Positions 24,252 to 25,016 of a DNA stretch of 38,936 nucleotides are shown here, one piece after another. The number at the start of each line of letters is the position of its first letter. Position 1 is the first letter of the stretch. The position numbers and the translations under genes were made by a program. This stretch comes from a virus (taxonomy: Duplodnaviria > Heunggongvirae > Uroviricota > Caudoviricetes): the IMG/VR virus record IMGVR_UViG_2802429244_000013, positions 1 through 38,936 of that record, one strand, 5' to 3'. The notes under the pieces were generated by a model. That model did not search any database. It had not been told where the DNA came from and saw only the letters and a program-made list of their open reading frames with translations.

Positions 24252-24791
24252 ATGGGCATAGTGCTTTATTCTGCTGACAGAAGAGGCAGATACAATGCAA
24301 ATACATTAATGAATTTTTCTTCTATAGTGCCGCCTGTAACTGATAGCTACATTGTTGATGGTCCAATTGGGGCGAAGTTTGATTTCAAAATCGCTGAACA
24401 TGGTTTGCGATACCTGTTTCCGAGAAGATACCTAACCAGCACTGATCTCATGGAGCTTATTGTTGAACTGGTTCGTCAGCTTCAGTTCCCAACAAAACCA
24501 TCAAGATACCAGTCAATATTCGCCTGTGAAAAGATAGAGGATGCGAATTATTTTAGAGAAAATTATCGTGAACACGATGGACCGCAACCTATTTATGAAA
24601 TACTGGCAGGTGATAATACAAATATTCACCGTGGTGATATGAGACTTCTTGACATTGATTCATTAACAGATAACGCAGCAATAATCTTCACAAAAGCAAT
24701 CTGGTACTGGTCAGGCATCGCTTCTAACGAAGCGTTCTGGGAGTATGTTGTCCCGCTTCCCGCACAGATCGGCAAGATGGTAATGGAATAA
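24252..24791 (+). CDS. orphan hypothetical protein (179 aa) on the opposite strand to the late operon
   Basis: AGGAGA RBS 5 nt before ATG at 24252; AT-rich with rare codons; convergent with the minus-strand late genes; no motif recognised. Confidence 0.6.
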   Translation: MGIVLYSADRRGRYNANTLMNFSSIVPPVTDSYIVDGPIGAKFDFKIAEHGLRYLFPRRYLTSTDLMELIVELVRQLQFPTKPSRYQSIFACEKIEDANYFRENYREHDGPQPIYEILAGDNTNIHRGDMRLLDIDSLTDNAAIIFTKAIWYWSGIASNEAFWEYVVPLPAQIGKMVME

Positions 24792-24806
24792 TAAACAATT
24801 AACCTA

Positions 24807-25016
24807 TCAGGCGGGGGAGCAAGATATATTCACGCCTGATAGATAACTCTCAAGATGTACATATGGATCAAGATGGACCTCGTCTTTACTAAGCTGATCG
24901 ATGACGATTCTCATCTTTTCAATCACTTCTTCTTTAGTTTCTCCAGAAGTAGAAAATGTAAATCGAATTCTAGCGGGTAAGGCACATTGATGTGCTGCAA
25001 TTTTAATCTCTTTCAT
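24807..25016 (-). CDS. hypothetical small protein (69 aa)
   Basis: Track ORF 24807..25049; ATG at 25016 with a strong GGAGGA RBS. Confidence 0.5.
   Translation of the reverse strand: MKEIKIAAHQCALPARIRFTFSTSGETKEEVIEKMRIVIDQLSKDEVHLDPYVHLESYLSGVNISCSPA

Follow-up and report, generated by a model that had tools for sequence, protein, structure and literature searches.

A DUF2441 protein with a predicted ADP-ribosyltransferase fold encoded antisense to the late genes of a lambdoid prophage

We analyzed a 38,936-nucleotide (nt) stretch of DNA from a virus of the class Caudoviricetes (IMG/VR record IMGVR_UViG_2802429244_000013, positions 1 to 38,936), referred to here as the window. It is a lambdoid prophage in which all the late genes lie on the minus strand, and the subject of this study is the single gene running in the opposite direction between the antiterminator gene Q and the lysis genes. 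Judging from profile matches and a structural model, its product, a protein of 179 amino acids (aa), is a member of DUF2441, a family that makes up the BC2332-like branch of the ADP-ribosyltransferase (ART) superfamily. The gene forms a cargo cassette with a small convergent open reading frame (ORF) carried by the late strand. We give even chances to the idea that the protein is an ART using nicotinamide adenine dinucleotide (NAD+), expressed in the lysogen for purposes of defense or conversion, silenced by late transcription and possibly antagonized by the small late protein.

Identity, Fold, and Putative Active Site of the Protein

The gene and its ribosome-binding site are located as follows:
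24252–24791, plus strand: gene encoding the DUF2441 (BC2332-like, ART-fold) protein, 179 aa, ATG start
24241–24246, plus strand: Shine-Dalgarno sequence AGGAGA, 5–6 nt from the ATG

The 179-aa protein matched Pfam DUF2441 (PF10386) with 28.0 bits against a curated cut-off of 25 (E = 2.5e-6), the match covering only the C-terminal two-thirds of its length. In an exhaustive HMMER scan, 528 cluster representatives were obtained at E ≤ 0.001, and the best 150 of these 528 relatives are nearly all standalone proteins about 100–265 aa long, mostly 160–220 aa. Residue conservation was assessed on an alignment of 66 relatives taken from these representatives, all of which match DUF2441 and nothing else. 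The residues G51, R75, R85, Y152, W153, and E164 are invariant, and D9, R10, H50, E72, S84, F90, and P170 are conserved in at least 90% of the sequences; the S84-R85 and S88-x-F90 positions are invariant or at least 90% conserved.

The family profile matches a single solved structure, that of BC2332 from Bacillus cereus (PDB 2AUA, E = 4.2e-16). The AlphaFold model of the 179-aa protein is a confident one (pLDDT 91.9), which shows the same fold as this structure and the split beta-sheet core common to the diphtheria, cholera, PARP, RES, DarT, and Arr proteins. When Foldseek was run with the model, 2AUA came first, followed by the A1 chains of cholera and heat-labile toxins, which are far from significant (E at least 0.17), and a search in a viral structure library gave only uncharacterized proteins. 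DUF2441 has been assigned to the Pfam ART clan (PMC7955679) and to SCOP class d.166.1.6, "BC2332-like" (PMC3000352), and the 2AUA site was matched to the catalytic site of diphtheria toxin by structure-template analysis (PMC3024214). An earlier note on this DNA, made from the letters alone, had recognized no motif in the protein and called for profile-based homology searches and structure prediction; these have now been run, and the DUF2441 assignment with its ART fold, based on the Pfam match, the match of the profile to 2AUA and the model, supersedes that statement.

Glu164 lies at the start of the penultimate strand (163–168), the place of the catalytic Glu in ART enzymes. As regards the putative NAD+ site, H50-G51 and F90 suit the H-Y-E type, and R10 and S88 suit the R-S-E type. 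Belonging to DUF2441 gives a fold and a probable cofactor and not a role, since BC2332 itself, a 224-aa protein about 20% identical to that of the window, has no known function. The ART fold might conceivably serve another chemistry, such as that of an NAD+ glycohydrolase or phosphorylase (RES/MbcT), an Arr-like ADP-ribosyltransferase acting on small molecules, a Tpt1-like RNA 2'-phosphotransferase or a non-catalytic binder. We consider this very unlikely, and the fact that Glu164 is invariant in 66 sequences out of 66 argues against a purely non-catalytic role.

Position, Composition, and Cargo Status of the Gene

The ORF at 24252–24791 is, by all the comparisons made at sequence level, a real gene under purifying selection: in addition to its Pfam match, it has an end-to-end match to phrog_5663 (E = 1e-52), Escherichia albertii proteins named DUF2441 are 98% identical to its product, and the substitutions separating it from its relatives are biased towards the third codon position (40/17/82 by codon position over 179 codons). 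Database records already label it a "DUF2441 domain-containing protein". The earlier note had given it the span 24252–24849; the ORF itself ends at 24791, and the end at 24849 takes in an inverted repeat described below. The strong ribosome-binding site that had been noted was confirmed, with AGGAG (24241–24245) placed 6 nt ahead of the ATG.

The base composition and codon usage are likewise as previously described. The guanine-plus-cytosine (GC) content is 40.9% (36.7% at third codon positions), as compared with 49.4% in the window and 46–54% in the neighboring genes. Rare codons amount to 10%, versus 4–7% in most of the neighbors, though the proportion in Q also reaches 11%. The holin, endolysin, spanin, small terminase, head, tail, and tail fiber assembly genes are all carried by the minus strand, amid which 24252–24791 is the sole convincing plus-strand gene, as had been claimed: the two other plus-strand ORFs of the late region that do not clearly lie under a longer minus-strand ORF had no PHROG match.

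The Q-to-lysis interval of lambdoid prophages is a classic toxin site, that of Shiga toxin (Stx) in particular. The DUF2441 gene shows the features of a phage "moron", namely a deviant GC content, a promoter-like motif, terminators on either side, and a conserved slot in which it is not always present. It is, as far as these features tell and as the earlier note had suspected, independently acquired cargo of this interval: the composition is deviant, the promoter-like motif is conserved, terminators are present on the minus strand, and the slot is held by diverged relatives elsewhere.

Other morons known from late operons or from the junction of Q and the lysis genes are stx in Stx phages, bor and lom in lambda, and gogA and gtgA in the Gifsy phages, and opposite-strand morons such as bor are expressed independently of late transcription. 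The gene in the window resembles them in its deviant composition, in having its own (predicted) promoter and terminators, and in its late-region site. Their products are a secreted toxin, outer-membrane proteins, and type III effectors, whereas that of the window is predicted to be a cytoplasmic ART-fold protein; the window gene also differs from them in having a conserved small partner ORF on the late strand.

The Small Convergent ORF and the Inverted Repeat at Its End

Two features were located at the 3' side of the gene:
24807–25016, minus strand: small ORF of 69 aa, convergent with the DUF2441 gene across a 15-nt gap, from the ORF list and phrog_11414
24804–24842, no strand assigned: perfect 10-base-pair (bp) inverted repeat (24804–24813 / 24833–24842) with a 19-nt loop, predicted to form a hairpin of -18 kcal/mol

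The small ORF matches phrog_11414 (E = 1.6e-27, positions 24810–25016 being scanned), and its substitutions, distributed 15/12/33 by codon position, are biased towards the third position. The convergent small gene mentioned in the earlier note is therefore real, and it had been overlooked there as a part of the same cassette. With a GC content of 39.0%, it is rich in adenine and thymine (AT-rich) like its DUF2441 partner. It is the first ORF beyond the late promoter and terminator, i.e., the first of the late transcript. The model of the small protein has a beta-alpha-beta pattern and a low confidence (pLDDT 62.6), and no match was found in Pfam, NCBIfam, or PADLOC with the 54-aa fragment encoded at 24855–25016, from which the conserved C-terminal 15 residues are missing.

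The 10-bp repeat is present as stated in the earlier note; it is not an intergenic element, being located within the last 12 codons and the stop of the small ORF. Three comparable repeats occur in the whole window, where about 1.6 are expected by chance, and an 8-bp core is kept in the relatives with a 69%-identical small protein and absent from the other two cassette types; on these grounds the repeat is real and only weakly beyond chance. Either of the convergent transcripts could carry it as a hairpin at the 3' end. On the plus strand, no T-run follows it. Two more perfect inverted repeats of 10–11 bp, with loops of 19–40 nt, are present at 26318–26356 (in Q) and 7317–7376 (in a late structural gene).

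The relation between the two genes brings to mind a toxin-antidote pair mediating addiction or abortive infection, in which a growth-arresting ART would be countered by the small protein or by an antisense RNA overlapping its 3' end, as at convergent type I toxin-antitoxin loci, so that a disturbed balance would result in cell death or arrest. We take this to be rather unlikely. The tight tail-to-tail linkage of the genes (from a 15-nt gap to an 11-nt overlap), their common base composition, and the stable hairpin predicted at the common 3' end in the cassette type of the window all speak for such a pair, as does the fact that the RES, ParT, and DarT toxins have the same fold. DarTG, ParST, and Xre-RES/MbcTA, however, are co-transcribed two-gene operons with macrodomain or helix-turn-helix (HTH) antitoxins. 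The partner in the window belongs to the late transcript and runs convergently, no recognized domain was seen in it, and its model is of low confidence; since the DUF2441 gene has no same-strand neighbor, no co-transcribed macrodomain or HTH/Xre antitoxin is to be found there.

Distribution and Conservation of the Cassette

Related loci were drawn from assemblies, from IMG/VR, and from one Escherichia coli genome. The slot is filled by a DUF2441 gene, 29–99% identical to that of the window, in about 50 lambdoid prophage loci of enterobacteria. On one side of this gene is the antiterminator, sometimes accompanied by an anti-repressor module, and on the other the lysis cassette; the gene itself is on the opposite strand, antisense to the late transcript that depends on Q. 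About 40 viral contigs and another 22 loci from assemblies show it opposed in orientation to Q and to the genes for lysis or terminase. The family is also present in more distant settings: in a different phage lineage, a lone opposite-strand DUF2441 gene separates the lysis genes from that of the small terminase, a Streptococcus prophage carries a lone opposite-strand copy in its early region, and in Gordonia phages the gene lies between the tail genes and the integrase gene. According to a crude count, the gene is flanked by opposite-strand ORFs on either side for 24 out of 36 distinct proteins.

In nearly all the enterobacterial loci, a small coding ORF, convergent with the DUF2441 gene, lies directly against the stop codon of the latter or overlaps it, the tail-to-tail spacing ranging from a 15-nt gap down to an 11-nt overlap. 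These small ORFs fall into three sequence types tracking the DUF2441 subtype, and types B and C are related (E about 1e-4). Homologs of type A, that of the window, were found only on contigs also carrying DUF2441, and 50,697 phage records contained neither a homolog of the window's small protein nor any close DUF2441 relatives. Type B accounted for 4658 index blocks, which places it in thousands of assemblies; its members are named Salmonella proteins in database sources. This Salmonella type is paired with an intact DUF2441 gene in 10 places out of 10, three antiterminator families being represented among them, and a related type-B pair (locus L037), with a small protein about 65% identical, stands beside a different holin family. 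The pair therefore stays linked across differing antiterminator and holin backbones.

The cassette is rare in E. coli, the counts for the three types being 0, 0, and 7 among 5426 complete genomes. In a DNA-level search of phage and E. coli collections, only the flanks were recovered (query positions 1–130 and 924–1001) and the cassette was absent; in the E. coli prophages with the same flanks, the slot is empty or holds other cargo. A scan of the genome collection with a 10-sequence alignment yielded 6 loci. In Salmonella, one backbone carries a HicAB toxin-antitoxin pair upstream of the cassette (L078, 2252–2886), and an IS200-type (Y1_Tnp) transposase gene lies between cassette and holin in L077/L079 (about 3970–4479).

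The host range bears on the idea of an ADP-ribosylating virulence or conversion factor directed at eukaryotes, delivered by the type III secretion system of E. albertii or Salmonella in the manner of EspJ or resembling the prophage toxins of Q-lysis sites. We regard this as highly improbable. It would accord with the classic toxin site occupied by the gene, with the closest relatives being those of E. albertii and Salmonella, and with the non-significant Foldseek matches to toxin A1 chains (E at least 0.17) ranking next to 2AUA. The family, which has spread to Gram-positive and actinobacterial phages, is however equally represented among those infecting Klebsiella, Gordonia, Streptococcus, Clostridia, and Burkholderia, hosts with no such secretion systems, and the N-terminus contains the conserved core residues D9 and R10 rather than a variable secretion signal. 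Nor does the locus resemble those of AB toxins such as Stx and ArtAB: the N-terminus (MGIVLYSADRRGRYN) has no hydrophobic signal segment, and no co-oriented downstream gene, hence no B-subunit gene, is present.

The Upstream Region

The candidate control elements ahead of the gene are as follows:
24203–24229, plus strand: promoter-like element TGATAT(C/T)GT followed by an inverted repeat, from the alignment of upstream regions
24168–24194, plus strand: perfect 8-bp inverted repeat GCCAGATT-aag-AATCTGGC followed by TATAAC, from the repeat search and the upstream alignment

The motif TGATAT(C/T)GT was observed about 45–50 nt ahead of the ATG in all 21 of the diverse loci aligned, even at about 30% protein identity, and only one copy of it occurs in the window. 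It can be read as an extended -10 element (TG-n-TATcgT), with the TG at 24203–24204 and the hexamer TATCGT at 24206–24211, which suggests a promoter of the sigma-70 type. The motif is followed by the inverted repeat GTTAC (24210–24214)-N10-GTAAC (24225–24229), which might be either an operator or a hairpin in the 5' leader. Its 5-bp helix was found to be paired in 77% of cells, versus 19–47% when slid, with modest covariation; RNAalifold detected no consensus structure in the 5' leader. In the window, L006, and L020–L062, the motif and the short repeat show about 80–97% DNA identity, versus about 30% protein identity downstream, and the sequence of the repeat varies among loci yet stays self-complementary.

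Further upstream, TATAAC (24189–24194) may be an alternative -10 element, in which case the 8-bp repeat would cover the spacer and the -35 region as a possible operator. At this element, CTGGCGGTATA resembles a half-site of lambda OR1/OL1. The inverted repeats of the promoter region were considered as repressor operators shared with the immunity region, and no other copies were found in the window; since CTGGCGGTATA does not recur in the window's immunity region, repressor control is unsupported.

The Late-Strand Context

The late-strand elements surrounding the cassette are as follows:
26036–26710, minus strand: DUF1133-type Q antiterminator gene, upstream of the late genes
25818–26016, minus strand: isrK, C4 antisense RNA, and a1/b1 target elements, identified with Rfam, directly downstream of Q
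25154–25765, minus strand: ORF6N anti-repressor gene, following the isrK/C4/a1b1 elements
25027–25145, minus strand: late promoter-like site, leader of about 80 nt, and strong terminator, from the terminator scan
24133–24157 (approximate), minus strand: second, weaker terminator candidate
24058–24081, minus strand: hairpin and T-run resembling an intrinsic terminator, between the cassette and the holin start, from the terminator scan

The late promoter-like site consists of TTGCAA (25145–25140) and TTCAAT (25122–25117) separated by a 17-nt spacer, and the terminator of a strong hairpin (25061–25036) and a T-run on the minus strand. The same promoter/terminator segment comes directly after a DUF1133-type Q gene in L001 and in E. 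coli L007, prophages from which the anti-repressor module is missing, and positions 25023–25100 are 95–100% conserved and unannotated after DUF1133-type Q genes in about 600 complete E. coli genomes. The segment 25027–25145 is probably a short-RNA unit of the pR'/tR' type that is read through under the action of Q. Its position is similar to that of IsrJ in Gifsy-1; no match was obtained over 23900–25300 with Rfam, including isrJ.

The isrK/C4/ORF6N module is like that of Gifsy-1 IsrK/AnrP (resembling P1 immI) and is inserted between Q and the late promoter; the close relatives L001–L005 do not carry it. Downstream of the cassette on the late strand, a hairpin with a T-run was present in 26 out of 28 loci from enterobacteria, 82–198 nt upstream of the start codon of the DUF2441 gene. 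Elsewhere in the window, a sok antitoxin RNA was detected in the nin region (28124–28298, minus strand; Rfam, 109 bits), from which a hok/sok type I toxin-antitoxin locus can be placed there. A homolog of the NinI-like Ser/Thr phosphatase is encoded beyond the tail-fiber assembly gene, where the late region ends (193–870, minus strand; phrog_246, E = 3e-85), and may be a further cargo gene, since nin-type genes are unusual at such a site.

Proposed Function and Points Against It

In the reading we prefer, the protein would be a small cytoplasmic enzyme of the ART superfamily, encoded by a two-gene AT-rich cargo cassette within the leader of the Q-dependent late operon. It would use NAD+ to modify a macromolecule, either a protein or a nucleic acid. 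The enzyme would be made from its own sigma-70 promoter in the periods without late transcription, meaning the lysogenic state and perhaps a very early stage of infection. The benefit to the lysogen would most plausibly be interference with superinfecting phages, or else some other alteration of host physiology; superinfection exclusion or defense comes first because this is the usual role of standalone ART-fold proteins on mobile elements. Once Q has turned on late transcription, RNA polymerase would run antisense through the gene and silence it, and the abundant small late protein may neutralize the pre-made enzyme and spare the prophage's own lytic growth. A Salmonella DUF2441 gene was detected by RNA-seq in ordinary uninduced cultures (PMC9867438), which gives weak support for expression.

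The following points weigh against this proposal. As regards the enzyme, hhalign gave no alignment with approximate versions of the diphtheria toxin and cholera toxin A1 sequences; the NCBIfam scan of the 179-aa protein returned no match, and that of PADLOC-DB 2.0 with the full protein returned 0 families at E ≤ 1. In the searchable literature, no DUF2441 member has a demonstrated activity or phenotype. A variant found in E. coli (strain C311, locus L006 at 3651–4163, and 6 other E. coli genomes) has Gln-Gly in place of the near-invariant His-Gly, and the Gln at position 50 might be either a tolerated change or one by which activity is altered or lost. As regards expression, the promoter is proposed solely from conservation, no call having been made at the TGATAT element by a consensus promoter scan. 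Since H-NS frequently silences AT-rich cargo in enterobacteria, the gene cannot be taken for granted to be expressed in the lysogen.

Other points concern the small partner. Comparing type A with the other types, hhalign gave E = 0.002 and a probability of 14%, and a resemblance seen by eye between the window's small protein and the small ORF of E. coli C311 was put to BLASTP, which found nothing; because of these weak and blank results, homology among the three types is not established. The linkage between the small ORF and DUF2441 could be mere adjacency, and outside the enterobacterial lambdoid phages no equivalent partner is evident.

A more specific version of the proposal, to which we give little credence, is that the enzyme and the small ORF form a module gated by the life cycle, where the ART made in the lysogen, which may target nucleic acid in view of its cluster of invariant arginines, would block superinfecting phages or arrest the cell, and the antidote would be the first product of Q antitermination. 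Only the resident prophage would then disarm the enzyme on lytic entry, with the help of antisense transcription.

It is also unlikely, in our opinion, that the ART serves the phage itself as a host-takeover or anti-defense enzyme, produced constitutively on DNA entry or in the lysogen where it would protect the prophage. Such an enzyme would ADP-ribosylate a host defense component or one of transcription or translation, and late antisense transcription would shut it off. There are precedents for activities of this kind, since AcrIF11 ADP-ribosylates Cas8f, and Alt, ModA, and ModB of T4 modify RNA polymerase. AcrIF11, the anti-CRISPR ADP-ribosyltransferase of phages and plasmids, nevertheless belongs to a different family with no detectable sequence similarity to the window protein, and no anti-CRISPR-associated regulator is present beside the gene in the window.

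Returning to our preferred reading, the earlier note had singled out the gene as a candidate for lysogenic conversion, toxicity, or anti-phage action. The ART fold fits the guess of a toxin or anti-phage protein in kind; these roles are nonetheless put forward as hypotheses, since the searchable literature gives no function for the family, PADLOC gave no match, and neither a signal peptide nor a B subunit is present.

Significance

The structure of a DUF2441 protein was solved in 2005, and no experimental function was found for the family in the searchable literature, where the conserved architecture of the cassette and the linked small late ORF also appear to be undescribed. ART-fold enzymes carried by mobile elements have repeatedly proved to be toxins, defense effectors, or anti-defense enzymes. 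In enterobacteria, prophages repeatedly carry DUF2441 as cargo in a fixed arrangement, which comprises an antisense position in the late operon, a promoter-like motif, terminators, and a small late ORF. If the small late protein inhibits the enzyme, the prophage would be using Q antitermination to set the moment at which its own weapon is disarmed; should none of these ideas be borne out, the gene would be an ordinary uncharacterized cargo gene. The cassette, one type of which is present in thousands of Salmonella assemblies, provides a cheap and concrete experimental handle on DUF2441.

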